Source: Escherichia phage vB_EcoM_SP13. From it: a DNA stretch of 64,000 nucleotides. The translations under genes were made by a program, and so were the position numbers. The DNA lies in the sequence record OP352608, one strand, 5' to 3'. Shown here one piece after another: positions 1-60,386 of the stretch. The notes beneath the pieces are model-generated. The model saw only the letters and a program-made list of their open reading frames with translations. It was not told where the DNA came from and searched no databases. The stretch's first letter is position 1, and each line of letters opens with the position of its first letter.

Positions 1-131
1 ATTTTAAAAACATTTATATTAATTTTTTTCATATCCTCATACTTATGTTAATTTATATATTTAACGTATCATCCGTAAGATATAAGTAAAAACAAAGACT
101 TGCGGCAATACGGATGATACGTCATGATACG
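1..131. repeat. AT-rich tract (1-60) followed by a perfect 14-bp inverted repeat ACGTATCATCCGTA, built from the same ATCCGTATC unit as the iteron locus near 16.1 kb
   Basis: Read directly: 64-77 acgtatcatccgta and 109-122 tacggatgatacgt (exact reverse complement); 1-60 is strongly A+T rich. Confidence 0.6.
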
Positions 132-360
132 CTTCAACCAGCCAGCAGCGGCTAAGTCGTTGATTTGCATAACAAGCGGCAAAAGGGATGGATTTCTTTT
201 ATACGTATCAAACAGTACACCACGCACCACGGTCCGTTATCCATTCAGCAATATGATTTGTGTACGTTTATAGCCATAATGAACATCAATCTGCACTTGA
301 ATATAATGTCCATCCATTGTATAATTCACACTATTAATTTGCACTATGGGATTTTGCACT

Positions 361-834
361 ATGAGTCAAGATTATGTAGCGATGCCTGAAGACTTTGAAG
401 ACCCGCGATTCGCAGAGCACAATCAGGCTTTATTCGATGAGTTCATTGACCTTGTTATTCAGGGTCATGACATGCGCGCAGCTTTTGCACTAGTATTTGG
501 AATGGAAGTTGCAACGGATAACTACACTGGCCAGCGAATCCTTTGCACGCAACGCAATCCATACTACAAGATGCGCTTCAAAAAGCGTATGGAAGAGATG
601 CCACTCAAGGATTTGTGGAGCGTAAAAGGTGCAATTCACAATTTGGTTAAGCTTGTTCGTGATCCAGAAGTCGCGGCGTCAGCCAAGCTTAATGCTATTC
701 GTGAACTGAATATCATCTACGGCATCACGATGATTGATGAAAACGGCAATAGTAAAATGGGCCGTTCCATGGACGATTTCTACAAGGATTTTGGAGAGGC
801 GGCCAAAGAAGGTGAGCAATTCTCCCGCCACTAG
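361..834 (+). CDS. hypothetical protein (about 158 aa)
   Basis: ORF 346..834 trimmed to the ATG at 361; an AATTTGCACTAT box ends on the start codon; no recognisable motif. Confidence 0.6.
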   Translation: MSQDYVAMPEDFEDPRFAEHNQALFDEFIDLVIQGHDMRAAFALVFGMEVATDNYTGQRILCTQRNPYYKMRFKKRMEEMPLKDLWSVKGAIHNLVKLVRDPEVAASAKLNAIRELNIIYGITMIDENGNSKMGRSMDDFYKDFGEAAKEGEQFSRH

Positions 835-948
835 CCAATTTGCACTATAAAACGGCCCTAGAACACATTTTCTCCAATTCTAGGGCCATCGGTAATACGA
901 CGGGGAAGGTTACAAACATAAACGCGTTAGAAAGTGTATTATTATAAG

Positions 949-1212
949 TCATCTTTTAGTCACCTTACGTAACAATTTACGACCTTCAACCGTCCAATCG
1001 AACGACTCCACCAGCAGATTCGCACTATAACCTAAGACGATGCGTCCCTTCTCGTTATCGACCCGCCAACAAGTCTCGAATAGCATTCGATTTGCACTAT
1101 TAACTATTGCCGCAACTCGCGTAGGATAAGCGCAATTTGAACTATGGTCGTAAAGGGATAAGGTGCGACCACTTCCGATGGACAACGTAGCGATGAGAAT
1201 GAGCGTATTCAT
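949..1212 (-). CDS. hypothetical small protein (coding status uncertain)
   Basis: 87-aa ORF with GGTGG RBS, but three AATTTGCACTAT-type boxes lie inside it on the opposite strand. Confidence 0.3.
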   Translation of the reverse strand: MNTLILIATLSIGSGRTLSLYDHSSNCAYPTRVAAIVNSANRMLFETCWRVDNEKGRIVLGYSANLLVESFDWTVEGRKLLRKVTKR

Positions 1213-1262
1213 AAGCCACCAATTTGCACTATGAAAAGCGACCCCGAAGGGCCGCCATTCGA

Positions 1263-1889
1263 TTAGATAATCTGGAAGGTATAGGATTTGTTGCCGAACT
1301 CAAAGTTCAAGCGCCCAGCTTCCTTAAGCTTCATGCGGAAGCGAATGTGCTTGCTATCCGGCAAGCCCAGCACGGCGAACGCTACGCGGACCGATTTGAA
1401 CTCGCCTACACCCTCGACCATAACGCCGTTACGGGTGAGACGCTTTTGCGCCACTTCCTTATTATCCCAACTTTTTGCAATACCTTCGCTATTCGAACGG
1501 CGATGGGAAGGAGTTCCATTTTGCACTACGCAATTTGCACTATCGTTTAGACCGCTCTTAACGAAGGCTTCATACTCTTCGTCGGTCATCGCGTCGAGTT
1601 CTTCCTGGGTCGGCTCGGCCTTTTTAACGACCGCACGCGCCTTATGCGTTTTTACATCGCTGGACACTTCCTCGCGCGACTTCGCTTCGGGGATGGGCGA
1701 TTCGTTGGACGGCTCATCGAGCGCGTTTAAGGACTCGATTAACGCGATTACGCGAGTCTCGGCGGTACGGCGGTCCGCAAATTTCTTAATCGGCTTCGAA
1801 CCGGAATTTGCATTATAAAATGCAACGAGGTCGGCGGTCTTAGTTGCGATAACGTCGCCGCTAGTCGAGAAACGATTTAAGCTAACCAT
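1263..1889 (-). CDS. hypothetical protein (208 aa)
   Basis: ORF with AGGAG RBS 7 nt before the ATG; GC-richer codon usage than most of the window; overlapping plus-strand ORFs judged less likely. Confidence 0.55.
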   Translation of the reverse strand: MVSLNRFSTSGDVIATKTADLVAFYNANSGSKPIKKFADRRTAETRVIALIESLNALDEPSNESPIPEAKSREEVSSDVKTHKARAVVKKAEPTQEELDAMTDEEYEAFVKSGLNDSANCVVQNGTPSHRRSNSEGIAKSWDNKEVAQKRLTRNGVMVEGVGEFKSVRVAFAVLGLPDSKHIRFRMKLKEAGRLNFEFGNKSYTFQII

Positions 1890-1969
1890 AATGAACTCCT
1901 ATTTGTTAGGGCGCTAGGCGCGAAAGAATTTTATTAAAGCGCCGCGCACGACGCTCTAAAAATCCTCTC

Positions 1970-2254
1970 TTACGCTTCGACGAGGGAGAAGGTCTCAAAT
2001 TCTTCTTCGCCCATAACGAGTAAGATGTTACCGATTTCGACCGCTTCGAAGAAGTATCCGTTAACGTTTACTTCGAAGGCTTCGCGGTCCGATTCCGGTA
2101 ACGCCGCGTAAAGTTTAAAAGCCTCGGCGACCGTTACCCCACCCGCCTCGATGGTCTGGTCTACGTTCGCGGCGTAGACTTCGGATAAAATTTGTTTTAC
2201 GCCGTAGTTCTCGACGATAGCGTTACGGATGGAAGAAACGTTAAGAATAGCCAT
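1970..2254 (-). CDS. small protein, paralog of the 2889..3179 product
   Basis: AGGAG RBS; shares VY-x-NVD-x-IE and VN-x-NG-F-x-E-IG segments with the 2889..3179 protein; preceded by promoter cassette copy A. Confidence 0.7.
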   Translation of the reverse strand: MAILNVSSIRNAIVENYGVKQILSEVYAANVDQTIEAGGVTVAEAFKLYAALPESDREAFEVNVNGYFFEAVEIGNILLVMGEEEFETFSLVEA

Positions 2255-2322
2255 TTTAAACTCCTAGTTGGGAGAGGCGTTAACGACCTATTCGCTAACT
2301 CATCCCGTCCCGATATGAGTAC

Positions 2323-2350
2323 ATTATAATATAGTGTAGAAAAAAGTAAA
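2323..2350 (-). promoter_or_regulatory. sigma70-like promoter (cassette copy A) for gene 1970..2254
   Basis: On minus strand: -35 TTTACT, 16-nt spacer, -10 TATAAT, then the conserved leader ATATCGGGACGGGATGAGTTAGCGAATAGGTCG shared with copies B and C. Confidence 0.55.
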
Positions 2351-2394
2351 GCACTTTTTCGATAAAAATGCGATAAATTATTTTATCTTTTTTC

Positions 2395-2422
2395 TTTACT
2401 TCTTCGTACACTCGCGTATACT
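2395..2422 (+). promoter_or_regulatory. sigma70-like promoter (cassette copy B) for gene 2479..2781
   Basis: -35 TTTACT (2395-2400), 16-nt spacer containing GTACACT, -10 TATACT (2417-2422), followed by TTGTTTATATCGAGACGGG. Confidence 0.55.
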
Positions 2423-2478
2423 TGTTTATATCGAGACGGGCGATGGCCCTTCCTTCTACTAGCATCGGGAGCTTTATT

Positions 2479-2781
2479 ATGACTACTTTAATCTCTTCCA
2501 TCCTTACTTACGACGAAGACCGTTTAACCGTTCGCTCTCTTATCGCCGCCGTTAACGCCGAACTAGAATCTAGCGCCATTAAGGTCCGCGCGGTTGCCTT
2601 CGTCGGTCTTTCCTTCGACGATATCAAGTACGCCGAACGTAGCGCCATCCGCTTCGCGAAGACCGACGACGAAGCCGTTACCCTTATCGAGACGGTTACT
2701 CCGCGCGGCGAAACGTTAATTATCGTCGAGTATATCGACGTAGAAGGCGATAAGGCTTATAAATATTTTATCGCAAAATAA
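2479..2781 (+). CDS. hypothetical small protein (100 aa)
   Basis: ORF 2422..2781 trimmed to ATG 2479 with GGGAG RBS; no recognisable motif. Confidence 0.65.
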   Translation: MTTLISSILTYDEDRLTVRSLIAAVNAELESSAIKVRAVAFVGLSFDDIKYAERSAIRFAKTDDEAVTLIETVTPRGETLIIVEYIDVEGDKAYKYFIAK

Positions 2782-2792
2782 CGAAAAAGTGC

Positions 2793-2821
2793 TTTACTTC
2801 TTAGTACACTAAGACTATAAT
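2793..2821 (+). promoter_or_regulatory. sigma70-like promoter (cassette copy C) with structured leader for gene 2889..3179
   Basis: -35 TTTACT (2793-2798), 17-nt spacer containing GTACACT, -10 TATAAT (2816-2821); leader 2837-2869 GGGATGAGGTAGCGAATAGGTCGCTACCCTCCC can form a stem-loop. Confidence 0.6.
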
Positions 2822-2888
2822 GTTTTATATCGAGAGGGGATGAGGTAGCGAATAGGTCGCTACCCTCCCGACTAACTAGGAGAATATT

Positions 2889-3179
2889 ATGATCACTTTA
2901 TCCGCTATCCGTGCCGCTCGCGTCGAAACTTCCGAAAACTCTAACGTATTTGGCGAAACCTTAGAGAGCGTTTATCTCTCTAACGTTGACGCGATTATCG
3001 AGTCTATTTATGAGCCGATCAACTTCCTCGACCTTTACAAGTATCGCGATGAGGACATCGTGTCCTACCGCGTAACGATTAACGGCTTCGTTTATACGAT
3101 TACCGAAATCGGCGGCGAATATCTCGCTGTACCGCAACTCGGCGGCGAAGTAACTTACTTTAAAATCGTAAGCCTTTAA
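2889..3179 (+). CDS. small protein, paralog of the 1970..2254 product
   Basis: AGGAGA RBS; paralogy visible in the translation. Confidence 0.75.
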   Translation: MITLSAIRAARVETSENSNVFGETLESVYLSNVDAIIESIYEPINFLDLYKYRDEDIVSYRVTINGFVYTITEIGGEYLAVPQLGGEVTYFKIVSL

Positions 3180-3190
3180 GGAGAAGAAAA

Positions 3191-3400
3191 ATGATTAATA
3201 TGAATAACTCTCTTAACGCGCGCGCCCATCGCACCGCCGTCATCGATATGTTCCGTGAGCTTAAGGACTTATGCGATAATATGAACGCGATGTTATCCAT
3301 CGGCGGCTGGGGATACGAAGAAGAAGTTAAATATGCGGTTATGCGTCGCCGTCGCGATAACGTCCTTGGGCAAATTAAACGCGCCGGATTATTCCTTTAA
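3191..3400 (+). CDS. hypothetical small protein (69 aa)
   Basis: AAGGAGAAG RBS; followed by a terminator. Confidence 0.65.
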   Translation: MINMNNSLNARAHRTAVIDMFRELKDLCDNMNAMLSIGGWGYEEEVKYAVMRRRRDNVLGQIKRAGLFL

Positions 3401-3426
3401 TTATAATCAACCACCGTTACTAATAG

Positions 3427-3451
3427 GCCGCGCTTAGTCGCGGCTTTTCTT
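3427..3451 (+). terminator. rho-independent terminator
   Basis: GCCGCG-cttagt-CGCGGC hairpin followed by TTTTCTT. Confidence 0.7.
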
Positions 3452-3570
3452 CGTCCCTATCTCGGTGCGCTCCTACGCGAAAACTCCTTTATCCTTCCCT
3501 TCGTCGTCGCATAATCTTCGTCGATATGCGCCTTAGTTCGCATAACAGGTATTACGTTAAATGGAGAACA

Positions 3571-3832
3571 TCGCGTAAGTCCTTGTTTTATATAGACACC
3601 TATATCGGACCGTTAGGGCGGGTCGCGTAAGTCGTTGTTTTATAAAGGCGCAAAACTTTCCCTTCGTTCCGAACTAAAACGAGGAATATGCCGACCCTTC
3701 GTCCGAAAATAGTACGCATGCGAAATTACATGCATCTAGAATAATCCCCACAGATATTATCCTACACGCAATCATTCGCTTTCGAATCATTATGCTTCAT
3801 ATTATTATGCGTCGAATCATTCGCTTTCGAAT
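3571..3832. repeat. Direct repeats in a roughly 700-bp non-coding stretch
   Basis: TCGCGTAAGTC(C/G)TTGTTTTATA at 3571-3592 and 3623-3644; AATCATTCGCTTTCGAAT at 3770-3787 and 3815-3832; no convincing ORF or tRNA cloverleaf found by eye. Confidence 0.5.
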
Positions 3833-3909
3833 TGTAACGCTGGAAACTGTAACGGCGATTGATTATTGCGTTCGTGTGGTTTTTATGGCATGGGTCTTTT
3901 TGGTGCGTT

Positions 3910-3938
3910 TTGCTACTTGATGGAATTTGCGGTACACT
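3910..3938 (+). promoter_or_regulatory. promoter-like element (-35 TTGCTA, 17 nt, -10 TACACT)
   Basis: Hexamers and spacing read directly; contains AATTTGCGGTACACT, related to the AATTTGCACTAT boxes; points into a minus-strand gene block. Confidence 0.35.
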
Positions 3939-4006
3939 AATCAAAATACGACACATTTAGTCTACTAACTTTTCAAAGAAAAAGTCCTGGACAGTACCGT
4001 ACTATT

Positions 4007-5653: not shown

Positions 5654-7963
5654 TTATTTTGCTGATTTCAGCGCGGCTATCTCTGCCTTGAGTTCACCTA
5701 TCTGATCCATGAGTGCAAGAATAGCCTCGTGGTGCAATGCCGCTGCCACTCCGTAAGTGTCGACTGATTTGACATCCTTGACCACGGTCCCATCAGCCAG
5801 TTCCATATCACCTGAAACAGAAACGGCTTCTGGGAAATCAACCTCAACATCTTGAGCCACGAATCCAAAACCTACTTTCGCGCCGTCAGTTTTCAATCGC
5901 CATGACACGCCATTAATCCTTTTCATCTTGGTCAATGGGTCTTGAATCTTGACAATCTCATCCTTGATTCTGACGTCTGAAGAAGTACCCCAACCGCCAG
6001 CGCAAACAGCATTACCTGCTTGCAGGAATTGGAAATACTTGTTGGTGCCTACACCGCCAGCAGTAGTGGTCATTATGGTCACATCGCCATTACGCTCAGA
6101 ATATACCCGACCATACGTTGCTGTGTTGGCACTGTTCTTAAAATCGATGAACGATTGGTTGTTGGTGTTTCCAATGAACGTCGCTTGACCGCCGCGAGTT
6201 ATCAACTGGCCTTTTGCATCAACGTTCCCAGAGCTGGTGATCAAGTTATTTGGCACAAGCAAGTTGCCGTTGTCGACAAAATCGAATGCCTGGCTGGCGG
6301 CAGTCGTCAAATTGGTAACGGTCAATCGCATGTAATAAGCGCCACCGATAACAGCGCGAATGCGCATGCGACCTTCAGCCTCAACAGCAGTCCCCACTCG
6401 ATACTCCGACATGACGCTGCCGCCGTCAGCGGTCGTGCCTGGACCTGGCATTGCCGTATCGCCGTTTATAACAGACCATTGCGTATTCGCCGCTGTGAAT
6501 CCACCGGATGCACGAATCACCCAAACGCCTGAAAAGTTGCGCGGCAATACTTCATCTGTTGCAAGGTTGTTACGACCGTAAGCTGGGCTTGAGTTAGAAG
6601 CTCTTAGCGCAACGCTTCCCAAAGAGTTCGCACCAGAACTTAAAAGCGAAACACCTCTTACATATCGCGGAATGGTGAATCCTTCTCCATTGATGAATGC
6701 GCCGCCAGCACCTGCGACAACCGTTCCTGATGCTGGTTCACTTGCAGGGCCGGACCCGTGGAAGTTGATGTTGCCAGTGATGTTTGGCAGGAAGGATTCC
6801 ATTATCATTCCGTCATTTGACGAGTTGCCGCCATCGCCACGGGCAAAAAGTGCACGAACACTTCCTGTCTGAACGCCGTTACGGTCTGGAACACGGAATG
6901 TTGTTGTTCCGTTGCCTAAAGAATACTTTCCGCGCTTCAGCGGGTCAGCCAACCAATCTGCATCAGCAATAGGCGTAAGCATTTGCGCATAAGCCCAAAG
7001 CTCAGGCCAGTCTGCACGGTTAAGCAATTGTCCGTCGGCAACAACTTCATACGACTGAATATAGGCGCGACTGTCGCGCAGGTGAAAGTCACCAACGCCA
7101 TAGTTCATTACGCCGTTCATGCTTGGGCCAACGGTGCCAGTATTTACTAAGTTCTCAACCCAACGCTTCGTCGCGGCATCATAATCATTGACGGGGTCGC
7201 CAGCCAGTGGTGTTGAGCCTTGTGGACGAATATTCAACCATGCTTGCGCATTGTCTGCTGATCCTGTGCCGCCCATGGAAGTTGGAACGATGCTCTGATC
7301 AGCAACAGGGCCAAATCCAAAGGCATCTTTCATTCCCTGAATAGTCGTTTGACCTGTGCCGCCGTTTGCAATTGGAATTGTGCTTTGTGAACTATAAATT
7401 TGCGCCCAAGGCGACCATGAAGATGTTTCAGCATTGTACCTTCTTTGGTACAAGTTATTTGAGTTGAATGTGGTGTATCTTTGAATGCAACTTTCCAAAG
7501 ATATGGCAGTCTGCAGGACTTCCAATATCCCAGCTTCCAAGGCTACTGGATAGTTGAGGGATGTCTGCGCAGCAGCATTTGAATATTGGTAATATTGCCC
7601 AAACCAAGTTCCAGTCAAAGAGTTCAGATTTATCCCCGACGGCAAAAGTCCAAAATTCCTGACAGTATTGGTCAAAGATGCGGCAGTTGTTCGAATGGAA
7701 AGCATGTCGCCTGCCGCCCATGCGCGCGCTGCAGTTCCTTCCTGTGCACGCTGCACAGTCAGGACGTTCCCAACCACGGCTGTTACAGTGATGATTTCAA
7801 ATTGGAGGCCTGTTGCAGCGTCGACGATTGTCGCCACTACACGCTCGTTTGCACCCAAGGTCGGAAAGCCCGACCCTGAGCGGATTGTGATTGTGGTGTC
7901 TGAAGTCGTCGCTGGCTGAGCGAGCGCGACCTCAAAGTTGTTTTTGAATATTAGCCTTGGCAT
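5654..7963 (-). CDS. tail fibre/tailspike protein with C-terminal self-cleaving intramolecular chaperone domain (peptidase S74-like)
   Basis: N-terminal TITIRSGSGF...VTAVVGNVLTVQRAQEGT fibre-anchor-like segment; Gly/Ser/Thr-rich repetitive body; C-terminal GGWGTSSDVRIKDEI ... FGFVAQDVE ... LKAEIAALK pattern as in endosialidase-type chaperone domains; CGAGGA RBS. Confidence 0.75.
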   Translation of the reverse strand: MPRLIFKNNFEVALAQPATTSDTTITIRSGSGFPTLGANERVVATIVDAATGLQFEIITVTAVVGNVLTVQRAQEGTAARAWAAGDMLSIRTTAASLTNTVRNFGLLPSGINLNSLTGTWFGQYYQYSNAAAQTSLNYPVALEAGILEVLQTAISLESCIQRYTTFNSNNLYQRRYNAETSSWSPWAQIYSSQSTIPIANGGTGQTTIQGMKDAFGFGPVADQSIVPTSMGGTGSADNAQAWLNIRPQGSTPLAGDPVNDYDAATKRWVENLVNTGTVGPSMNGVMNYGVGDFHLRDSRAYIQSYEVVADGQLLNRADWPELWAYAQMLTPIADADWLADPLKRGKYSLGNGTTTFRVPDRNGVQTGSVRALFARGDGGNSSNDGMIMESFLPNITGNINFHGSGPASEPASGTVVAGAGGAFINGEGFTIPRYVRGVSLLSSGANSLGSVALRASNSSPAYGRNNLATDEVLPRNFSGVWVIRASGGFTAANTQWSVINGDTAMPGPGTTADGGSVMSEYRVGTAVEAEGRMRIRAVIGGAYYMRLTVTNLTTAASQAFDFVDNGNLLVPNNLITSSGNVDAKGQLITRGGQATFIGNTNNQSFIDFKNSANTATYGRVYSERNGDVTIMTTTAGGVGTNKYFQFLQAGNAVCAGGWGTSSDVRIKDEIVKIQDPLTKMKRINGVSWRLKTDGAKVGFGFVAQDVEVDFPEAVSVSGDMELADGTVVKDVKSVDTYGVAAALHHEAILALMDQIGELKAEIAALKSAK

Positions 7964-9378: not shown

Positions 9379-10839
9379 ATGAATAAAATATTAACACATA
9401 ATTGGAAATTCATGTACCAGTTGAATCCTGCTTTAAAAGAAGTCTGGAAGACAAAAGCGCGATACAAAGTAATATACGGCGGTCGTGCATCTTCCAAATC
9501 GCACGATGCCGCTGGTTTTGCTATTTATTTGGCGGCAAACTTCAAATTAAAATTCCTTTGCGTTCGACAATTCCAGAACAAAATTTCTGAATCTGTATAT
9601 ACTCTATTAAAAGACAAAATAGAGATTTCTGATTTCAAAGATGAGTTCAATTTATTAAAGAACTCTATTGAACATAAAAGAACTAAATCTGAATTTCTAT
9701 TTTACGGTATCGCACGTAACGTTGATGAAATTAAATCAACAGAAGGTGTTGACGTCCTTTGGCTGGAAGAAGCGCACGCGCTTACTGAAGAACAGTGGGA
9801 CATTATTGAGCCGACAATCCGTAAAGAAGGGTCCGAAATATGGATCATCTTTAACCCCGATGAAGAGGCCGATTTTGTCTACCAAAACTTTGTTATGCGA
9901 CCGCCGAAGAATGCCATTGTTAAAAAGATAAACTGGCAAGACAATCCATTTTTGTCGCAAACGATGCTGGACGTTATTGCAGGCATGTACGAGCGCGACC
10001 CGAAAAAGGCAGAGCACGTTTATGGCGGCGTGCCGAAGACTGGCGGCGATAAATCTGTAATCAACCGCGCATTCGTTAAGGCCGCGCTTAATCTCCACAA
10101 ACACCCTACGCTGGGATGGAGTTTGTCAGGGTCTAACCGTATAGGCTTTGACGTAGCGGACGATGGCGACGACCTTAACGCCACTGCATTCGTTACAGGA
10201 AACGTATTGCGCGGCATCAAGACATGGGAAGGTCTGGAAGATGAATTGTTAAAATCGGCAAGCGGAGTTTGGAAAGATGCGCTTACATTTGGCGCTTCTA
10301 TAACTTATGACGCCATCGGTGTCGGCGCTTTTGCTGGTTCAAAATTTGATGAACTGAACGAGTATGCAATACATGAAAATCCATCATTTCCAAGAATCGA
10401 ATTTAATGCGTTCAATGCGCAAGGGTCTGTTGATGATCCTGATGACGTTTTTCTTGAATTACCACACGTTGAAATACTCAATAAAGACCATTTCGCAAAC
10501 ATAAAAGCGCAAAAGTGGACTGAAATTGCAGAGAGATTCAGAAAGACATACGAATATGCAACTGGGCAAGCCGTATATCCGACTGATGAGTTGATTTCAA
10601 TCGACACCGATGGCATACCAGAACTTGGAATTCCAGCTTGGACTACTGAAGAGATTGAGACGTTTCTTTTTGAGATGTCAGCGCCGCGCAAAGATACGTC
10701 TGTTCTTGGCAAGTTCAAAGTTGAATCTAAAAAGGATATGGCAAAGCGTGGAGTCAAATCACCTAACAAAGCGGACGCGGCAATCATGGCATTAATGAAA
10801 CCAATCGTTGCAGCATCCGGCTTCTTCTCTAACCTTTAA
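9379..10839 (+). CDS. terminase large subunit
   Basis: N-terminal deviant P-loop RYKVIYGGRASSKSH typical of large terminases, acidic nuclease-type C-terminal half, position upstream of the portal; alternative start at 9412. Confidence 0.85.
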   Translation: MNKILTHNWKFMYQLNPALKEVWKTKARYKVIYGGRASSKSHDAAGFAIYLAANFKLKFLCVRQFQNKISESVYTLLKDKIEISDFKDEFNLLKNSIEHKRTKSEFLFYGIARNVDEIKSTEGVDVLWLEEAHALTEEQWDIIEPTIRKEGSEIWIIFNPDEEADFVYQNFVMRPPKNAIVKKINWQDNPFLSQTMLDVIAGMYERDPKKAEHVYGGVPKTGGDKSVINRAFVKAALNLHKHPTLGWSLSGSNRIGFDVADDGDDLNATAFVTGNVLRGIKTWEGLEDELLKSASGVWKDALTFGASITYDAIGVGAFAGSKFDELNEYAIHENPSFPRIEFNAFNAQGSVDDPDDVFLELPHVEILNKDHFANIKAQKWTEIAERFRKTYEYATGQAVYPTDELISIDTDGIPELGIPAWTTEEIETFLFEMSAPRKDTSVLGKFKVESKKDMAKRGVKSPNKADAAIMALMKPIVAASGFFSNL

Positions 10840-11657: not shown

Positions 11658-14033
11658 ATGAAAATTCTTGGCATAAAACTCTGGGAGAAGACGCGACCAG
11701 AAGCCGAACCAGCGGAGATGCCGCCAGGCGACCCATTGGCACCGTTTGAACGCCTTGAAAGGCGCGGCAGCGGTCAACGCTGGGAAAAGACTGAAAGCAA
11801 TCGACCGACCTTTAAAACGGTTGATGACTTCCCTTTATATGAGCCTGATATTAACGGGGACGGTGTTGCAATCATCAAAGGTCGCTCAGTAGATTCAGCA
11901 ACCGTATCCAAAAAAGTTATGGATAATGCCTTAAAGAACATCAGTTCAGAAGGGCAGGTGAATCCATACACAGTGCCTATTCAGTTGCAAAACTGGTACT
12001 TATCGCAATCATTTATCGGATATCAAGCTTGCGCCATCATCGCGCAGCACTGGCTAGTGAACAAGGCTTGTTCCATGGTAGGCCGCGATGCGGTCCGTAA
12101 AGGCTGGGAAGTCAAATCCAGTTCTGAGTCGGAATTGTCAGTACAGGCCAGCGAACGCTTAAAGCAAATTGATAAAGAATTTAACATCAAAGAGCACTTA
12201 GTTGAAGCCGAACGATTCAAGAATATTTTTGGCATCCGCGTCATCATATTTGATGTGCGCAGTGATGACCCAGAATATTATAGCAAACCTTTTAACATCG
12301 ATGGTGTGACAAAAGGGTCTTATAAGGGAATCATTCAGGTTGACCCTTATTGGATGATGCCATTCTTGACGTCTGAAAACACTGCAGACCCTGCGTCACA
12401 GCATTTCTATGATCCAGAATACTGGGTGATCAGCGGACAGCGTTATCATCGCAGCCACCTAATCATCTTGCGCAACGATGAGCCAGCTGATATTCTCAAG
12501 CCGACTTATATCTACGGCGGCATTCCTCTGACTCAGCAGATTTATGAACGTATCTATGCCGCTGAACGTACCGCTAACGAAGCGCCATTGCTGGCGATGT
12601 CTAAGCGTACAACCACGCTTCGGACCGACGTTGACAAGGCGATTGCCAATGAGCGGTCGTTTGCCGAACGTCTGATGATGTGGATTAAGTACCGCGACAA
12701 CTATGCAGTCAAAGTGCTTGGTCAGAAAGAAGAGATGGACCAGTTCGACATCAACTTGTCAGACTTCGACAGCATCATCATGAACCAGTACCAGCTGGTG
12801 GCCGCAATCGCAAAAGTTCCGTCGACAAAACTGTTAGGGACGTCACCTAAAGGCTTTAACGCCACTGGTGAGTTCGAAATGGTCAGCTATCACGAAGAAT
12901 TGGAGACTTGTCAACAGCACGATTTGACGAAGATTCTTGACCGCCACTATAAAATCCTTTTGAAGTCTGAAGGCGTGGAAGTCGACGTTAAAGTGGCATG
13001 GGAGCCAGTTGGTTCACTTACTGCTACTCAGCTTGCAGAGATTAACGACAAACGAGCGAATACTGGCAAGACTCTCATTGATGCTGGCGTAATCTCCCCT
13101 GATGAAGAGCGCGACCGCATCAAGGACGACAAAAACAGCGGCTACAACCGTTTGCCGGAAGATGCAGCAGAAGAAACCCCAGGGATGTCTCCAGAGAATA
13201 TGGCACTGCTTGGCAAGTCTGCTGGTGAAGTTCTGCAAGGCAAGGCCGATATTGAACAGGCCAAAGCTGATGTTGTCAAGATGGGCGGCCAGTTCTATAG
13301 CGAGACTGGTATTATGCCGGAAGGTGCCGCGCGTGGTGAGTTGGCGGAAAACCCTGACAGGGCACCAGTTGAGATTAACATGGATGATACCGATGACGAA
13401 TCAAGCCATCACGTTGATGTCCTAACGCAACTGAAAGAAGGTCTGGAGGGTATTGCTGACTATTACCTTAAAGAAGGTCAGGACGTGGATTTTGACCCTC
13501 AAAAAGATGCAAGGTCGGTGCAACCGTCTACGCTTCCAAGCGTAAAAGGAAATGTCGTGAACTTGCGACACAATGTAGGGAAGATGGATGCTGCATCGCT
13601 GCCTAAGATGAAGTTGCACGGGATGATTCTTGGTATTGAGAATCCTCGCAACAGCATTCGCAGGGGTAACAGCCTTGATGGTGAATGGGCAGTTAAGATG
13701 CCGCACCATTACGGATTTATCAAAGGCACCAAGGGCGCTGATGGTGATGAAGTCGACTGCTTTGTTGGACCAAACATGAAGTCGCCTAAAGTATTCATCA
13801 TTAACCAAAATGATAATTATTCTGGCGAATTTGATGAACACAAGTGTATGCTTGGATTTGATTCAGCAGAAGAAGCGAAAGAAGCTTATCAGGCGTCATT
13901 TGGTAACGGTTGGAACGGATTTGACTCAATCCACGAATTGGATGTAAACTCATTCAAGGAGTGGTTGAAGGGTGATTGCTCTCAAGCATATGGAGCACTC
14001 AACAATCCTACTAATTCACCGAAGCAAGGTTGA
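11658..14033 (+). CDS. portal protein (with extended C-terminal region)
   Basis: ORF trimmed to ATG 11658 after AGGTGG RBS; size and position between terminase and head-morphogenesis gene; no portal motif verified. Confidence 0.65.
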   Translation: MKILGIKLWEKTRPEAEPAEMPPGDPLAPFERLERRGSGQRWEKTESNRPTFKTVDDFPLYEPDINGDGVAIIKGRSVDSATVSKKVMDNALKNISSEGQVNPYTVPIQLQNWYLSQSFIGYQACAIIAQHWLVNKACSMVGRDAVRKGWEVKSSSESELSVQASERLKQIDKEFNIKEHLVEAERFKNIFGIRVIIFDVRSDDPEYYSKPFNIDGVTKGSYKGIIQVDPYWMMPFLTSENTADPASQHFYDPEYWVISGQRYHRSHLIILRNDEPADILKPTYIYGGIPLTQQIYERIYAAERTANEAPLLAMSKRTTTLRTDVDKAIANERSFAERLMMWIKYRDNYAVKVLGQKEEMDQFDINLSDFDSIIMNQYQLVAAIAKVPSTKLLGTSPKGFNATGEFEMVSYHEELETCQQHDLTKILDRHYKILLKSEGVEVDVKVAWEPVGSLTATQLAEINDKRANTGKTLIDAGVISPDEERDRIKDDKNSGYNRLPEDAAEETPGMSPENMALLGKSAGEVLQGKADIEQAKADVVKMGGQFYSETGIMPEGAARGELAENPDRAPVEINMDDTDDESSHHVDVLTQLKEGLEGIADYYLKEGQDVDFDPQKDARSVQPSTLPSVKGNVVNLRHNVGKMDAASLPKMKLHGMILGIENPRNSIRRGNSLDGEWAVKMPHHYGFIKGTKGADGDEVDCFVGPNMKSPKVFIINQNDNYSGEFDEHKCMLGFDSAEEAKEAYQASFGNGWNGFDSIHELDVNSFKEWLKGDCSQAYGALNNPTNSPKQG

Positions 14034-14893: not shown

Positions 14894-15814
14894 ATGACGA
14901 TACCAATCAACACATTCCCTCTATCTGGACAAACTCCAGTCTTGCCTGCGGTGTATGCTAATGGCTTGGCAATTGTCTCAGAATTCACTTCTGATAAAAA
15001 CTTGATTGTTCCACTGAGCCCGCCGCTTTCATCAGGGTATAACTCAGTAGGCCAGTTCTTTATGATTGGCAATGATGGCGATTCGACCAGCAAGCCTAAT
15101 CTGACATTGTCTGTACCTAAGATGAACATCACCGACGTTCAAACTGGCTTGACTGCATCAACAATCACCATTGCTTTTGGAGAAGCAGTGATTATAGGAA
15201 TGGAGTCTGGAGGGTCCAAGAATGCTGTCGCCGTTAAGGTAGTCAAATCCAGCGACAACCAATACACTTTACCAGCTGCGACGGCTTCCGTTCTCGGCGG
15301 CGTCAAAATAGGAAGCGGAATAAGCGTCGCAGGTGACGGTACAATTAGCGTAACTCAATACTCATTGCCGATTGCGTCAGCATCTACTTTAGGCGGCGTA
15401 AAGGTCGGTACAACTCTATCAATTGATGGTTCCGGTGTGCTTAACGCAGCAGCAAGCACCGTCCAGAATGCCACGAACAGTGTTAGCAATCCTCCAACCA
15501 CTTTGGTTAATCTGGCAACCTTAAACCTTCCTGCAGGAAAGTGGCTTGTGACGGCAAGCCAATTGACCGTTGCAACTGCAGGCATTCAAGCGAATACCGG
15601 AATCACTGTAAAATTATCAACAAGCAATTCAGATATTACGGATGATGCATTTACCATGTCAGCGGGTATTCGGGCTTCAGGACGTTTTGGCGGTAACGTC
15701 CCAACAAAAATGATTACTCTTGCCGCGCCTGGTAATGTGTATCTAAACTATCAGTGCACCGATGCGTTAACATCTACCGTTTACGGACAGATCACCGCAA
15801 TTAAGCTGAACTAA
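14894..15814 (+). CDS. virion protein with phage-fibre-type repeats (head fibre or decoration candidate)
   Basis: Two copies of LP-x-A-(S/T)-AS-x-LGGVK-(I/V)-G; Ser/Thr/Gly/Asn-rich composition; GAGGT RBS. Confidence 0.5.
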   Translation: MTIPINTFPLSGQTPVLPAVYANGLAIVSEFTSDKNLIVPLSPPLSSGYNSVGQFFMIGNDGDSTSKPNLTLSVPKMNITDVQTGLTASTITIAFGEAVIIGMESGGSKNAVAVKVVKSSDNQYTLPAATASVLGGVKIGSGISVAGDGTISVTQYSLPIASASTLGGVKVGTTLSIDGSGVLNAAASTVQNATNSVSNPPTTLVNLATLNLPAGKWLVTASQLTVATAGIQANTGITVKLSTSNSDITDDAFTMSAGIRASGRFGGNVPTKMITLAAPGNVYLNYQCTDALTSTVYGQITAIKLN

Positions 15815-15824
15815 AGAGGAAGTT

Positions 15825-15962
15825 ATGCAAAAGATTATTCAGTCACGTTATGTTAAAGTGCGAAATATTAATTGCAACTCTTTGCTTTCTTGGAAATGGG
15901 CTGTTTATGACTCGATGTTGATTGGCGTTTTAGTGGCAGGAGTGCTATTTAATATTCACTGA
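15825..15962 (+). CDS. 45-aa peptide with C-terminal hydrophobic helix
   Basis: Not in the ORF track (under 60 aa); strong AAGAGGA RBS 5 nt before the ATG; MLIGVLVAGVLF segment. Confidence 0.4.
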   Translation: MQKIIQSRYVKVRNINCNSLLSWKWAVYDSMLIGVLVAGVLFNIH

Positions 15963-16004
15963 ATTCATCGGCAAAGGATTGCCGCGAGTTTTATACGTAT
16001 AATG

Positions 16005-16270
16005 ACGTATCATCCGTATCAAGTAAGTTGTTGTTTTCAAAAGAATCTTACGGATGATACGGATGATACGCGTTGCCGCCGTACTATATAGGAATTCAAA
16101 TAAATTAATTTAAAATTATATATCTAATTTAATTTTATTTTTTTATAAACTCTTATATATATGAAAAGTATCCGTATCATCCGTATCATCCGTAGCACAC
16201 CAGTGATAGCGCGGCTTATACACCGATACGGATAAAAATACGCCTCATTTTATCCGTATCATCCGTATCA
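16005..16270. repeat. Iteron cluster (9-bp unit ATCCGTATC, direct and inverted) flanking an 85-bp AT-rich tract; candidate origin of replication or other protein-binding locus
   Basis: 16005-16020 direct; 16049-16072 inverted 2.5 units; 16081-16165 almost pure A+T; 16169-16194 direct 2.8 units; 16224-16233 inverted; 16251-16270 direct 2.2 units. Confidence 0.7.
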
Positions 16271-16385
16271 CACTAATAAAGGCGCGGCTATATCGGTTGT
16301 TATACATATTCAAACCATAATTATTGTTTGCCTAAGTTTTTTTCATTAGATATAATACACAATACTTATTTGAGGGTGGATGCGA

Positions 16386-17801
16386 ATGCAAACGGCACGC
16401 GAAATTGACAAAAATGGATTCTTGACGATTATGGGTTGTCCGATTTCGTCATTTGGCATTTTTGATTATTCTGCTGGTCAAGTTGGTCTTGATGGTGATC
16501 CGAATCGCATCGTAAAAGTCTATCGCCCTGAGTCAGCGGTGAAAGACCCCGAAGCGATAGATTCATTCAAAAATATCCCTTTCATCGACAATCACGAAAT
16601 GCTTTCTGGATTTGAAGGTGATGAGGATAACACAGCACCCGAAGAGTATGGCGTTGATGGCGTTCTGACTGGCAATGTTTATTATGACAAGCCATGGATG
16701 CGCGGCGACCTTAAAGTGTTTAGCCGTCGTCTGAAGAAGGCCATTGATTCTGGAAAGGTTGACTTGTCTTTGGGCTATGACTGTGAATTCATCATACAGT
16801 CTGGAGAGTTTGACGGGCAGCCGTATGAAGTGGTGCAGACAACTCTTCGCGGCAACCACATTGCTCTCGTGGACGTTGGTCGAGTACCAGGTGCACGGGT
16901 GCTGGATGGTCGTTGCTTTGACCATCTTTGTTTGACGACTGTAACACCATCCAACGAGGATTTAGACATGCCAAAACCGTTAAAAGGTAAAGCGCGTGAT
17001 AATGCTGTTGAACAGCTGAAATCACTGATCCCTGCGCTCGAACAATTTCTGAACGAAGAGAGTACTGAAGCTGCTCATCAGGACGAAGTTGAAGTGAAAG
17101 CAGAAGAGAAGGACTCAACCGAAAATCGTGAAGAAGTAATGGTTGATCCAGAAGTCAAGGCAGAAGCAGAAGAAACCCCAGAAGGTGAAGAGAAGTTTGA
17201 AGTTGAAACTGAATCTCACGCTGGCGGCGAACTTCCGCAATTGATCAGCCAAATCGAAGCACTTATTGCAAAACTGAAAGGTGGCGCGGTAGGTGATGAA
17301 GAAGAAGTTGAAGCCGAAGTCAAAGACGAAGAAGAAGTTGAAGTCAAGGCTGAAGATGTATCACCTTGCGACAAAGCTGAAGATGTGGTTAGCGGCCTGC
17401 AAAACAGCAACGTAAAGGGGGCTTCGGTCGAAAAAGATGACAAACCGACAAAAGCGGCGAAAGCGTCGCCAGGTCCAGCAAAAGGGGAACACTCAATGGC
17501 ATCTGATTCAGCAGTTGCTGCTTTCTACGCTGATTCTGCTCGTAAGAATAGCCTCTACCAGCGCCTGTCTAAAGTTGTTGGTGCCTTTGATCATGCAACT
17601 ATGGACTCCAAGTCCGTAGCGAAATATGGCGCTAAAAAGTTAGGCTTGAAGTGCGTTGATGGTGCTGAGTTTGACGTGGTGGATAATTATCTGCGCGGCG
17701 TTGAGCACGGTCAGAAACAGCGTGTAGTCGCAAAACAAAAGGCCGCTGCGGATTCTGCAGCAACTGACGAAGCATTTGAAGCTTGGTTGAAAGGGGAATA
17801 A
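16386..17801 (+). CDS. capsid scaffolding-like protein (N-terminal domain of unknown function plus acidic coiled-coil-like region)
   Basis: Position before the capsid gene; Glu/Lys/Ala-rich central third with EEVEVK-type repeats; start moved to ATG 16386 after GAGGGTGG. Confidence 0.5.
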   Translation: MQTAREIDKNGFLTIMGCPISSFGIFDYSAGQVGLDGDPNRIVKVYRPESAVKDPEAIDSFKNIPFIDNHEMLSGFEGDEDNTAPEEYGVDGVLTGNVYYDKPWMRGDLKVFSRRLKKAIDSGKVDLSLGYDCEFIIQSGEFDGQPYEVVQTTLRGNHIALVDVGRVPGARVLDGRCFDHLCLTTVTPSNEDLDMPKPLKGKARDNAVEQLKSLIPALEQFLNEESTEAAHQDEVEVKAEEKDSTENREEVMVDPEVKAEAEETPEGEEKFEVETESHAGGELPQLISQIEALIAKLKGGAVGDEEEVEAEVKDEEEVEVKAEDVSPCDKAEDVVSGLQNSNVKGASVEKDDKPTKAAKASPGPAKGEHSMASDSAVAAFYADSARKNSLYQRLSKVVGAFDHATMDSKSVAKYGAKKLGLKCVDGAEFDVVDNYLRGVEHGQKQRVVAKQKAAADSAATDEAFEAWLKGE

Positions 17802-18435: not shown

Positions 18436-19575
18436 ATGACTCGCATTAGCCAAACACACTCTCGCCTCCCAGCGAGCAAGGTGCGCCCTTTTGATATGCA
18501 ATCTGTTACCGACGCGGCTGTTTCCCAGCTTGCTCGTATCGGTATTGTGTTTGATTCCGCGATTGTGCGTGATCAGATTGAGCACTTAAACCGTGCAGGC
18601 GCTTTCCGCGTAGGTGACGCCGCGTTCACTGCACCGCAGACTACTCCGTCAATCCCGACCCCGCTGCAGTTCCTGCAGCAGTGGCTGCCTGGCTTCGTCA
18701 AAATCATGACCGCTGCTCGTAAAATCGACGAGCTGGTTGGTATTGATACCGTTGGTCAGTGGGAAGATGCAGAAATCGTTCAGGGTATCGTTGAACCAGC
18801 TGGCACCGCAGTTGAATATGGTGATTTCACCTCTATTCCTCTGGCAAGCTGGAACGTAAACTTTGAACGTCGTTCTATCGTTCGTGGCGAAATGGGCATG
18901 GCAGTTGGTATGCTGGAAGAAGGCCGCGCGTCTGCTATGCGTCTGAACTCCGCAGAAACCAAGCGCCAGCAGGCTGCTGTATCTCTGGAAATCATGCGTA
19001 ACGCAATCGGCTTCTATGGCTGGTACAACGGGAACAACCGCACATTCGGCTTCCTGAATGATCCAAACCTGCCAGCGGCGATGACTTCCAACACCACTTC
19101 CGGCTGGGCTACTGCGACTTTCCAACAGGTAACTGCAGACATCCGTTTGATGGTTCGTCAAATTCGTGTGAACTCTCAGGACCAGATTGATCCAGAGAAA
19201 GTTGACATGACTCTGGCGCTGCCGACTAACTCTATCGATTGGCTGTCCAACACCACTGACTTCGGTATTTCTGTACGTGACTGGATCACCCAGACCTATC
19301 CGAAGATGAAGATCAAATCTGCACCGGAACTCAACGGCGCACTTGGCAGTGACCCGACTTTCTTGAACGTGGCATACCTGTACGCTGATCACATCGATTC
19401 CTCAATCGATGGTTCAAGCGATGATGGTTCCGTATTCAGTCAGCTGGTTCAAACCAAGTTCATGACTCTGGGCGTTGAAAAGCGTGCTAAGAGCTACGTT
19501 GAAGACTACGCAAACGCAACAGCAGGCGTTCTGCTCAAGCGTCCGTTCGCAGTCGTCCGTATGACTGGCATTTAA
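18436..19575 (+). CDS. major capsid protein
   Basis: 379 aa; AGGTGA RBS; codon usage biased toward CGT/CTG/GGT/AAC as in highly expressed genes; followed by a strong hairpin; no capsid motif verified. Confidence 0.7.
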
Positions 19576-58068: not shown

Positions 58069-59739
58069 ATGTCAATTAATAATGACAATCTTCCAGAGGA
58101 TACAGGTGATGAATTTGGTGCAATCTTTGACGAAATTCAAGATGCAGGCGTTTCGGAAGAAATGCAGGCAGCAGAGCAGCAAGGCACCAGAGCTAAAATC
58201 AGCCTTCAACATAAAGCCGTTGAAAAAGATTCAGAGCGCATGGAATGCTACGGTGAAGAAGACTTGGTTGAAAGAGCACGCTTGCTCGCCTCACTTCAGG
58301 TAATCAAGTTCCCTCACTACAAGCCGACCAAAGATGACTTCGTTCTACAGGCAGACCGGACGAGTGACATGAACCGTTATGCGGTTTTCGACGCGTTGTT
58401 TGATAAGGGAAGTGGCGTTGTTCCATTCCCTCACAAAGATACTTTTCGTGGGCGCTTAGTCGACCATCGCGGCGAAACATTCACCGACCGTACTTTGGAA
58501 GTCACAGAGATAGTTGCCGCTGTCGACGCAGCAGGATTGTCCAACCCAAACTCACGTCAGGTCGCTCAATCCTATAAGGAATGGGCCATGCGTTATCAGC
58601 GCGACGACCTGATGGACTTCTTCTACAAGAAGCTGCCTGAATGGGACGGTACTGCGCGCATCGAGAAATACCTTATCGAGCTATTCCGACCGTTCGATAC
58701 AGAGTTAAACCGACAAATCGGTGTGTATTTTTGGCTATCGCTCTACAACCGCCTGACCAACCCTGGCTGTCAAGCGCCAATTTCTATCGCGCTCATCGGC
58801 GGCCAGAACGCAGGGAAGAGTTATTTTAGCAAGCTGCTTTGCGAAGCTATTATGAACGACCGCCACGCAACACCGATTCCGTTGAACTTAGCCGCGCAAA
58901 ACTTCAACCCGTTCTTGCGAGCTATTACGGGTCGCTCAATTATCGCGAACGTTGGCGAGATGACAGGCTTTAAAAAGGCCGACATCGAAAACATGAAAGC
59001 ATTCCTGACTAAGACGGAAGATGACCTGGACTTCAAATTTGAAGATACGCAGGTTAAACCACGCCAGTGGATTGCGATAATGGACGGCAACGAATACGCA
59101 GGTATGCAGCGTGATGACACGGGCAACCGTCGTGTGTATCCTATCTTTGTTGGCCAACTCGCCGACAAGGACGGGCAACCGAACTGGTCGAAAGACTTCC
59201 AAGCTGACCTTTCCACTTTGAAAGAAGACGTTTGGCAATTGATGGCTGAGTGCGCTGCTTGGATGGAGAAGCACGGCGAAGCAGGTTACAACGCGTTTGT
59301 TGGTGAAACATCTCGCATGCTCACTGAGTTTAGTAAGAACGAAATGGAACGTGCACGCGGCGTTATTCGTGATGAGATGGTTGACAACGACCTTGTTGAA
59401 GTCGTCATTACCGCGCCTTATGACCGACATCACAGCGGACGCTGGCACATAACCAGTGGTGCTATTGCTATGGGATTCAGAGCGAAGTGCGGCAAGTCGC
59501 CTTTCTCTCGTACCCTTGCGCCGCACATGTCGAAGCTTGGTTTTGAGCCTGCAACCTATCGCAACCAGCGCGGTTACTTTACGCCGCTGATTAAGAATGA
59601 AGCAGGAGAATACATTTCTGATTTGATGACCATCTTAGCGTATCTTATCCGCGATGAGTCTGACCCTGAAGATATTGAATTCTTGAAGAAGGTTATTGAG
59701 CGTAAACGTTCTTTGGGAAGAGATAAGGATGAATTCTGA
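58069..59739 (+). CDS. P-loop NTPase, VirE/D5-like primase-associated helicase candidate
   Basis: Walker A IALIGGQNAGKSYFSKLL; strong AGGAGG RBS; synteny with the AEP primase. Confidence 0.55.
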   Translation: MSINNDNLPEDTGDEFGAIFDEIQDAGVSEEMQAAEQQGTRAKISLQHKAVEKDSERMECYGEEDLVERARLLASLQVIKFPHYKPTKDDFVLQADRTSDMNRYAVFDALFDKGSGVVPFPHKDTFRGRLVDHRGETFTDRTLEVTEIVAAVDAAGLSNPNSRQVAQSYKEWAMRYQRDDLMDFFYKKLPEWDGTARIEKYLIELFRPFDTELNRQIGVYFWLSLYNRLTNPGCQAPISIALIGGQNAGKSYFSKLLCEAIMNDRHATPIPLNLAAQNFNPFLRAITGRSIIANVGEMTGFKKADIENMKAFLTKTEDDLDFKFEDTQVKPRQWIAIMDGNEYAGMQRDDTGNRRVYPIFVGQLADKDGQPNWSKDFQADLSTLKEDVWQLMAECAAWMEKHGEAGYNAFVGETSRMLTEFSKNEMERARGVIRDEMVDNDLVEVVITAPYDRHHSGRWHITSGAIAMGFRAKCGKSPFSRTLAPHMSKLGFEPATYRNQRGYFTPLIKNEAGEYISDLMTILAYLIRDESDPEDIEFLKKVIERKRSLGRDKDEF

Positions 59740-60386
59740 TGAATAAAGCAATCAACATCGCTAAATTCTTTCAACATCTTGGTGAACTGAACAAAGAAAG
59801 TGACGTTCACGGCGAAGAAATGAACCGGATGATTTCAACCGTGTTGCGTGGCTTTGGTTATGATAAGGACTCCATCACTTGCAAGCGTACAAAACTTGTC
59901 GATGAGTCTTATCTTTACTACGTAGAGCTGCGCATTGGTAAAGATGTAATGATTATTGACCCTAAACTGGAAGGGGCGCACTGTTTTGGCGCTCATCCTC
60001 GTGCGAGTGAATTCAAGGGTCGCGGTCGCAACCGAATCCAGAAGCTTGATGACGCAGGCGACTTGAACATTGCCATGTTCCTCAAAGAGTTCCTTGCGCT
60101 ACCGAAGGTTGCATCATCCACTGGCCGTGATGACCCTTGCAAGATTGGATTCAGAACTAAAGATTTGCGCAATGCGCTACGCAAGAAGGGATTTGTGCCT
60201 TCTTATGACAACGTCGCCGCGCTGATGGCTTCAATGGAGGAAGCTGAAGCGATGGACAAGGTGCGCGGCTATTTCCTGAATACAGGCTTCACCATGTATG
60301 AATGGCACACGAAGGGATTGACTGTCGCCGACTTCATCTATTCATTAGAGCAGAAGTATGTACGCAATATGCAGGCCACAGGATAA
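59739..60386 (+). CDS. hypothetical protein (215 aa)
   Basis: Start overlaps the upstream stop (TGATG). Confidence 0.55.
   Translation: MNKAINIAKFFQHLGELNKESDVHGEEMNRMISTVLRGFGYDKDSITCKRTKLVDESYLYYVELRIGKDVMIIDPKLEGAHCFGAHPRASEFKGRGRNRIQKLDDAGDLNIAMFLKEFLALPKVASSTGRDDPCKIGFRTKDLRNALRKKGFVPSYDNVAALMASMEEAEAMDKVRGYFLNTGFTMYEWHTKGLTVADFIYSLEQKYVRNMQATG

Follow-up and report, generated by a model that had tools for sequence, protein, structure and literature searches.

The non-coding gap of 417 bp that directly precedes the head maturation protease gene of Escherichia phage vB_EcoM_SP13 (sequence record OP352608; the 64,000-nucleotide stretch analyzed here is called the window) contains a module of short repeats and AT-rich DNA that occurs exactly twice in the genome. 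The module is ~300 bp long and its copies lie ~16 kb apart. The other copy, at window 1-215 and in the DNA upstream of it, is the pac module of the phage and precedes the gene for the small terminase subunit (TerS); the physical left end of the genome is at window base 1, which falls inside the AT tract of this copy. We are highly confident that the head gap is a true paralogue of the pac module, and because this second module contains the packaging start, the head gap is its internal twin. From the sequence evidence we cautiously favor the view that the internal copy may be an auxiliary terminase- or TerS-binding site at which no major cutting occurs. Both pac sites and iteron origins belong to familiar classes of element; a non-coding pac twin in the head operon that co-evolves with pac in five genera is a new form of such an element, and our literature search found no description of the repeat structure of the pac region, of an internal twin or of the GCGGCA motif described below.

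The head gap consists of the following elements:

15969-15994, plus strand: terminator-like hairpin CGGCAAAGGATTGCCG followed by a T-run, found by consensus scan, directly 3' of the stop codon of an open reading frame (ORF) of 45 aa
15980-15985, minus strand: GCGGCA motif inside the terminator hairpin
15995-16021, plus strand: outer left iterons TACGTATAATGACGTATCATCCGTATCA, one degenerate and two good CGTATC-ATC units
16049-16070, minus strand: inner left iterons, 2.4 tandem 9-bp units, inverted; left arm of a 22-nt inverted repeat
16074-16079, minus strand: GCGGCA-class motif CGGCGGCAA at the left edge of the AT tract
16081-16165, no strand: AT tract with a central imperfect palindrome (16085-16107 / 16125-16147)
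16170-16196, plus strand: inner right iterons (9-bp units, three in tandem), with the right arm of the 22-nt inverted repeat
16211-16216, plus strand: GCGGCT motif
16225-16270: outer right set, with an inverted unit at 16225-16233 and a tandem pair of plus-strand units at 16252-16270
16284-16289, plus strand: GCGGCT motif; the paralogous core ends at ~16292
16328-16356, plus strand: sigma-70-like promoter TTGCCT-N17-TATAAT (10/12 matches) for the head protease, scaffold and capsid genes

The core (15995-16292) thus lies between the upstream terminator-like hairpin and the downstream sigma-70-like promoter, and its repeats form opposed iteron clusters on both sides of the palindrome. The exact unit ATCCGTATC is present in seven copies on both strands (starts at 16012, 16056 on the minus strand, 16170, 16179, 16225 on the minus strand, 16252 and 16261), all within 16012-16269 and none elsewhere in the window, where 0.51 copies would be expected by chance from zero-order composition; with degenerate copies included, the left cluster reaches back to 15995. 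Three arrays of period 9, each with 100% match, were found by Tandem Repeats Finder (16049-16070, 16170-16194 and 16252-16270), and a perfect 22-nt inverted repeat (16049-16070 / 16173-16194) stands on both sides of the AT tract. The AT tract (89% A+T) is the most AT-rich 85-nt stretch in the window, and the runner-up begins at base 1 and is the AT tract of the second module. The outer right set folds as a hairpin with a 13-bp stem (16225-16237 / 16248-16260) and the core, as single-stranded DNA, folds far better than shuffled sequence (z = -7.6), giving it cruciform or hairpin potential. In the Rfam search, only a plant miRNA hairpin was hit, by chance and below threshold, and we therefore rejected a structured RNA as an explanation. 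The original prediction for this locus, made from the letters of the window, had described repeats in both orientations, an 85-bp tract of almost pure A+T at 16081-16165 and a non-coding gap of ~400 bp among structural genes; the repeat positions hold within 1-2 nt, the tract is the AT maximum of the window, and the gap measures 417 bp (15963-16379).

The phage is an E. coli Wifcevirus. Escherichia phage F13 is 100% identical to the window over 15000-17500, and 27 further Wifcevirus-group records (e.g. WFC, WFH, ECML-117, FEC19, Mansfield and Bas98-101) are 93-98% identical over the same interval. When the gap was compared with the window by BLAST, a single other match was returned, at window 65-131. 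We read the module around this match from the window and, for the DNA upstream of the window, from the F13 record:

Upstream of the window (about 6330-6552 of the F13 record): left half of the pac module
1-215: right half of the pac module, with an AT tract at 1-62 (89% A+T) and iterons at 65-77 (plus strand), 109-131 (minus strand) and 199-213
102, 148 and 176, plus strand: GCGGCW motifs in the right half of the pac module
297-325, plus strand: sigma-70-like promoter of TerS, immediately 3' of the pac module
361-834, plus strand: TerS gene, by its match to PDB 7UXE and the Mansfield annotation

The order of parts in the pac copy matches that in the head gap, with cttACGGATGATACGGAT followed by the TATATAG(G)AATTC..AATTAATT AT tract and then by CGTATCATCCGTA, and with more iterons on both sides. 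The exact 13-mer CGTATCATCCGTA occurs six times in the head gap, three times in the pac copy and nowhere else in the genome, and the outer left iterons of the head gap have a counterpart, CGTATCATGACGTATCATCCGTA, in the pac copy (window 109-131, minus strand). The AT tract of the head gap is homologous to the one that carries the left end of the genome. The settings are parallel as well, each module being preceded by a terminator and followed by a promoter, in the pac copy that of TerS. Duplication of a promoter region as the source of the likeness is ruled out because the similarity between the copies stops before the promoters, which leaves the promoter at 16328-16356 outside the duplicated unit. 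The TerS assignment rests on a match to the TerS decamer of Pbunavirus E217 (PDB 7UXE, E=7e-34) and on the Mansfield annotation, which calls the homologue of window 361-834 TerS, with HHpred similarity to SF6 TerS; there was no Pfam match.

Independent records and terminus studies place the packaging start in the pac copy. The Mansfield and WFC records both begin with ATTTTAAAAACATTTATATT, which is window 1-20; PhageTerm assigned positions 1-3673 of Mansfield as the direct terminal repeat (DTR), the WFC record includes its terminal repeat, about 3.7 kb long, in both copies, and a repeat of 3,533 bp was reported for Ro157lw. One left end each was obtained in the PhageTerm or coverage analyses of Mansfield, Ro157lw, WFC, WFH and the Serratia phage MyoSmar; for MyoSmar the boundary, at 3559, falls within the corresponding AT tract and is ~390 bp upstream of TerS. 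Among Pbunavirus phages, PS44 has a record that begins at JG024 59,377, and Ipoutcha et al. found that 36 of 161 JG024 long reads start at 59,376 +/-5, named this a single start site, saw a matching pac fragment in digests on gels and concluded that packaging is headful. Essoh et al. described one fixed read end and no terminal repeat for Ab27-29, and the Ab27 record starts ~616 bp upstream of its TerS gene, like the PS44 record. The packaging mode of Pbunavirus is disputed, with defined ends, terminal repeats and headful packaging all proposed. A scan of IMG/VR for contigs ending in the AT tract returned four genomes only.

The right boundary of the terminal repeat differs between close relatives, falling at non-homologous positions within window 3480-3990. 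The Mansfield repeat ends at GGGTCTTT/TGGTGCG (record 3673; about window 3900) and that of WFC at TTCAAAGAAA/AAGTCC (record 3784, ~window 3981), ~80 nt beyond it; the lengths given for the repeat are 3533, 3559, 3673 and about 3.7 kb. The non-homologous right ends hint that what is called the "DTR" may be terminal redundancy of the headful type, ~5% in extent, of which the left end is sharp and the right end loose. Near the right boundary, non-coding DNA at window 3573-3650 and 3769-3832 contains CGCGTAAGTC(C/G)TTGTTTTATA twice and AATCATTCGCTTTCGAAT twice; these direct-repeat pairs are unrelated to the ATCCGTATC iterons.

We compared the two loci in Wifcevirus and in four other genera whose genomes are syntenic with the window. 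All five keep a gap in front of the head protease gene, of 417-515 bp:

Wifcevirus (window): gap 417 bp, shared unit ATCCGTATC
Kylevirus (Kyle): gap 515 bp, shared unit GGTTATT / GGATATT
Pbunavirus (PS44, JG024): gap 513 bp, shared unit TAATTTGG / GGTAATT
Myosmarvirus (MyoSmar): gap 470 bp, shared unit CTTTTCGTTTT
Bcepfunavirus (Maja): gap 457 bp, shared unit GATAGTTAAC

The repeat unit differs among the genera, yet it is common to both loci of each genome, and in all five genera both copies keep the same synteny and orientation, with the TerS gene directly downstream of the pac copy. Pairs of loci within a genome share 30-40 canonical 9-mers as compared to 0-14 for pairs from different genera, and the Pbunavirus copies are ~75-80% identical over ~320 bp. 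Because the iteron is shared within each genome and differs between genera, the two copies, as judged from their sequences, have changed together since the genera diverged. This joint change could stem from gene conversion, from selection for binding of a single common protein, or from the two combined.

Within Wifcevirus, the core is 90% invariant among nine genomes, compared with 88% for third codon positions in the neighboring protease gene. With synonymous sites nearly as conserved as the core, within-genus conservation cannot prove selection on it, and we therefore rely on the comparison across genera. In the same nine genomes, the terminator stem is the only freely varying part of the gap, and its changes look compensatory; the AT tract is invariant apart from a T-run and a TA indel, and 86 of 87 columns are invariant at 16293-16379. 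Iteron number is polymorphic by whole units: Bas101 is without exactly one 9-bp unit at 16049-16070. The third inner right unit is degenerate in the window, which reads CGTAGC at 16188-16196, and perfect in Bas99. Third codon positions of the fibre-like gene on the other flank (14900-15814) are 47% invariant versus 88% in the protease gene (16380-17400), and the gap therefore sits at a mosaic boundary.

The two copies have a further element in common. Among the eight loci scanned in four genera, GCGGCA is the only non-A/T-rich 6-mer present in every one, GCGGC occurs in four to seven copies per locus, and all copies that lie left of the AT tract are on the minus strand, all those right of it on the plus strand, with a copy in the Kyle terminator hairpin as the sole exception. 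In the head gap, GCGGCW is found at 15980 and 16074 on the minus strand and at 16211 and 16284 on the plus strand, i.e. four copies, where local composition predicts 0.07 and the genome as a whole would give 1.04 per 400 bp. By eye, the pac-like locus of Maja follows the strand rule; in the head gap of Maja, the right side conforms less clearly. Protein divergence does not tell which protein reads GCGGCA because the VapE-like protein and TerS are similarly diverged between Wifcevirus and Pbunavirus (44% and 41% identity, respectively).

In the interpretation that we tentatively prefer, the same sequence-specific packaging protein or proteins would bind the internal copy and the true pac site, decameric TerS being the prime candidate, and TerS or a TerS complex with the terminase large subunit (TerL) would read the iterons. 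The internal copy would be a terminase assembly site that is not cleaved, or rarely cleaved, and that might act as a synapsis partner for pac or as a loading or reservoir site. For the gene 16/gene 19 pac-like pair of T4, Black and co-workers proposed a "twin ring pac synapsis" in which two stacked TerS rings bridge two sites, and the C-terminal helix of E217 TerS has been proposed to insert into another ring (PMC9611059); together these proposals provide a concrete mechanism for a two-site system. A terminase site is favored because the cut lies at the center of the sister module, which always precedes TerS, and because repeats flank the cleavage region in the pac sites of SPP1 and P1. That it is not a major cut site is favored because every terminus study reports a single start and because the bases at the cut site are the least conserved between the copies in Wifcevirus and Pbunavirus. 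The features of a pac site are divided between the loci accordingly: the head gap has the repeats flanking a central region, whereas the genome ends map to window base 1 and not to 16.1 kb, and it is the paralogue, in five of five genera, and not the 16-kb locus that adjoins the TerS gene. Several observations weigh against a role in packaging. None of the 28 Wifcevirus records starts at the head gap, and no terminus has been reported at the internal copy, the JG024 long reads giving one start site; the divergence of the bases at the cut also counts here. Perfect iterons are more numerous in the internal copy than in pac itself (six exact 13-mers versus three), which is odd for an auxiliary site, the iteron period varies from 8 to 11 bp across genera, unlike what a fixed ring geometry would predict, and three of five genera (Pbunavirus, Myosmarvirus and Bcepfunavirus) have the primase-helicase gene immediately upstream of their pac copy, which suits an origin equally well. 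Finally, in a review by the authors of the E217 terminase work, E217 TerS is said to show no appreciable DNA binding in vitro (PMC9611059).

A more specific version of this model, which we regard as unlikely, makes the two modules obligate partners, only synapsis of pac and its twin by TerS licensing the first cut, or makes each module a dual element. Two TerS decamers, stacked via the C-terminal helix, would each wrap one module, which would represent a dedicated, conserved form of the T4 checkpoint. As dual elements, the modules would instead offer genus-specific iterons to TerS and the invariant, strand-polar GCGGCA to the replication helicase, so that origin firing might be physically coupled to the initiation of packaging.

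The main alternative, possible but doubtful in our view, is that both modules form a two-site replication element, like P4 ori/crr or SPP1 oriL/oriR, and that the packaging cut merely lies inside one of them. A phage initiator, e.g. the RepB-type primase or the VapE-like primase-helicase of SF3 type, would then recognize the iterons, the oppositely oriented GCGGCA motifs or both, and melt the AT tract. The architecture fits: an array of seven exact and several degenerate 9-bp units adjoins an AT-rich tract of the kind unwound at iteron origins (16081-16165), the core has strong cruciform or hairpin potential, and the opposed polarity of GCGGCA around the AT tract resembles the inverted pentanucleotides of SF3-helicase origins, e.g. 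the SV40 core origin. The position of the pac copy directly after the primase-helicase gene in the three genera named above is that of P4 crr relative to the alpha gene, and a second copy far from the terminase genes would need no special explanation. Among the phage genes are those for a RepB-type primase, a VapE-like protein and a Pol III alpha subunit, and none for a recognized initiator. Yet a packaging start at the center of one module, always beside TerS, would then be a coincidence, the primase-helicase adjacency is lost in Wifcevirus and Kylevirus, and no homology was found between the core and plasmid origins or E. coli chromosomes and prophages. The head gap is flanked by the 45-aa ORF and the head protease gene and not by an initiator gene, the replication genes of the window being at 42-60 kb. 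Cumulative GC skew, one of the checks proposed with the original prediction, rises steadily over 13-18 kb without an inflection at the locus and turns only at switches in gene orientation, although skew is weak evidence in phages; published skew analysis of Pbunavirus likewise has its minima, and the putative origins, in the replication module. Of the origin-like locus originally proposed, the iteron and AT-tract architecture therefore stands, and a replication origin, given the lack of a skew turn and of an adjoining initiator gene, gains no positive support; the packaging site offered as an alternative was right as to homology and wrong as to the termini, which map to the other copy and make the internal copy pac-like but not the pac site. 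Over the window, the cumulative skew has a minimum at ~11-12 kb, a maximum at ~38 kb and a second minimum at ~55 kb, none of them at a repeat locus.

Two further explanations carry less weight. As the original prediction also suggested, the array could serve late-gene regulation, as a regulatory or insulating stretch upstream of late promoters; a phage DNA-binding protein would occupy the iterons near both P(terS) and P(head) and thereby set the timing or raise the level of expression of the packaging and head genes, with the cut falling in one region incidentally. Each copy does lie between a terminator-like hairpin and a strong sigma-70-like promoter in the same orientation, near-consensus sigma-70 promoters before late genes imply some temporal control, and an ONT-cappable-seq study of phage 14-1 proposed additional phage-encoded transcription factors. 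We nevertheless find this decidedly unlikely: the iterons are 60-330 bp upstream of promoters that are not part of the duplicated unit, no such array precedes the other late operons of the window (TerL, portal and tail), and neither the central palindrome nor the location of the cut is explained. Highly improbable is a fully functional second pac site that is cut appreciably and starts its own headful series, despite the presence of all recognizable pac features including the central palindrome. Such a site would be harmless for a terminally redundant genome and would reduce waste of concatemers; the cut sequence of Kyle is well conserved between the copies (ACTTAAAAAAAATAC vs ACTACAAAAAAATAG), the internal copy has the larger number of perfect iterons, and the non-homologous right ends of the Mansfield and WFC repeats hint at headful-like termination. 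Against it stand the single left ends in the five PhageTerm or coverage analyses, the one fixed start in JG024 and Ab27-29, and the diverged cut-proximal sequence in Wifcevirus and Pbunavirus.

The pac-twin arrangement combines properties of several known systems. As in the pac sites of SPP1/SF6 (pacL-pacC-pacR, with the TerS G1P) and of P1 (hexamer repeats), repeats flank a cleavage region and packaging starts at one defined position. In SPP1 and P1, the site is at or next to the TerS gene, which here is true of the pac copy only; here the module is duplicated, the head-gap copy being away from the terminase genes and not a mapped terminus, the units are tandem, 7-10 bp long and in opposed orientation, strand-polar GCGGCA motifs are added, and TerS is a putative binder. 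T4 also has two homologous pac-like sequences, one at the TerS gene and one within structural genes; that pair is a short similarity inside coding sequence, whereas both copies here are dedicated non-coding modules of 300 bp, kept in five genera. The two-locus iteron origins of P4 (ori/crr, bound by the alpha primase-helicase) and SPP1 (oriL/oriR, bound by G38P) similarly have the same short iterons at two distant loci, in direct and inverted orientation beside AT-rich DNA; one P4 locus is just 3' of the primase-helicase gene and one SPP1 locus is in a non-coding gap of the late region. Unlike in those origins, the packaging start here lies within one of the copies, which always stands before TerS. 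In lambda-type and plasmid iteron origins, too, repeats adjoin an AT-rich tract of unwinding type, but the units here abut and are 9 bp long instead of ~19-22 bp and spaced by helical turns, are arranged symmetrically around the AT tract, and have neither an adjoining or overlapping Rep/O-type gene nor a skew signal. General points on these pac sites are from the TerS review (PMC9611059).

Pbunaviruses are among the most-used Pseudomonas phages in personalized therapy, and the structure of E217 TerS has been solved (PMC9611059). Our analysis places the packaging start inside a defined repeat module and provides candidate recognition sequences for five genera. The twin is a 300-bp cis element within a structural operon that genome engineers might treat as a disposable spacer. 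If it is a second terminase site, the long-standing idea of two-site synapsis could be put to the test in phages for which rebooting from synthetic DNA is possible; otherwise, the twin would be a replication element with sequence common to pac.

Wifceviruses are E. coli myoviruses of ~68 kb, distantly related to the Pseudomonas PB1-like Pbunavirus. Beyond TerS, the genes that frame the head gap are as follows:

About 9412-10839: TerL
About 11658-14033: portal
Between the portal and the fibre-like gene: MuF-like head protein
14894-15814: fibre-like protein
15825-15962: 45-aa ORF, adjoining the gap on the 5' side
16380-17801: head maturation protease, start codon at 16380 or 16386
Between the head protease and major capsid genes: virion protein
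18436-19575: major capsid protein

No gene is annotated in the gap in F13, Bas99 or Mansfield; some other records (e.g. kaset) carry hypothetical proteins over a region that includes it. Public records likewise have small ORFs on top of the pac iteron module, F13_0020 (53 aa; window 69-230, minus strand) and JG024 gp77 (59205-59786), which are probably not genes. The 45-aa ORF (MQKIIQSRYVKVRNINCNSLLSWKWAVYDSMLIGVLVAGVLFNIH) has no Pfam family match; its C-terminal half is hydrophobic, it is kept across Wifcevirus, and one to three small ORFs take the equivalent position in the other genera. The window is not colinear with F13 over 1889-3400, F13 having ~302 additional bases between window 1889 and 3191. 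The ORF at 3191-3400, annotated in F13 as a transcriptional regulator, has no Pfam match and is apparently absent from Mansfield. The TerS gene is ~8.6 kb from the TerL gene, with two oppositely oriented gene blocks between them, and lies inside the terminal repeat, so that it is carried twice in virion DNA.

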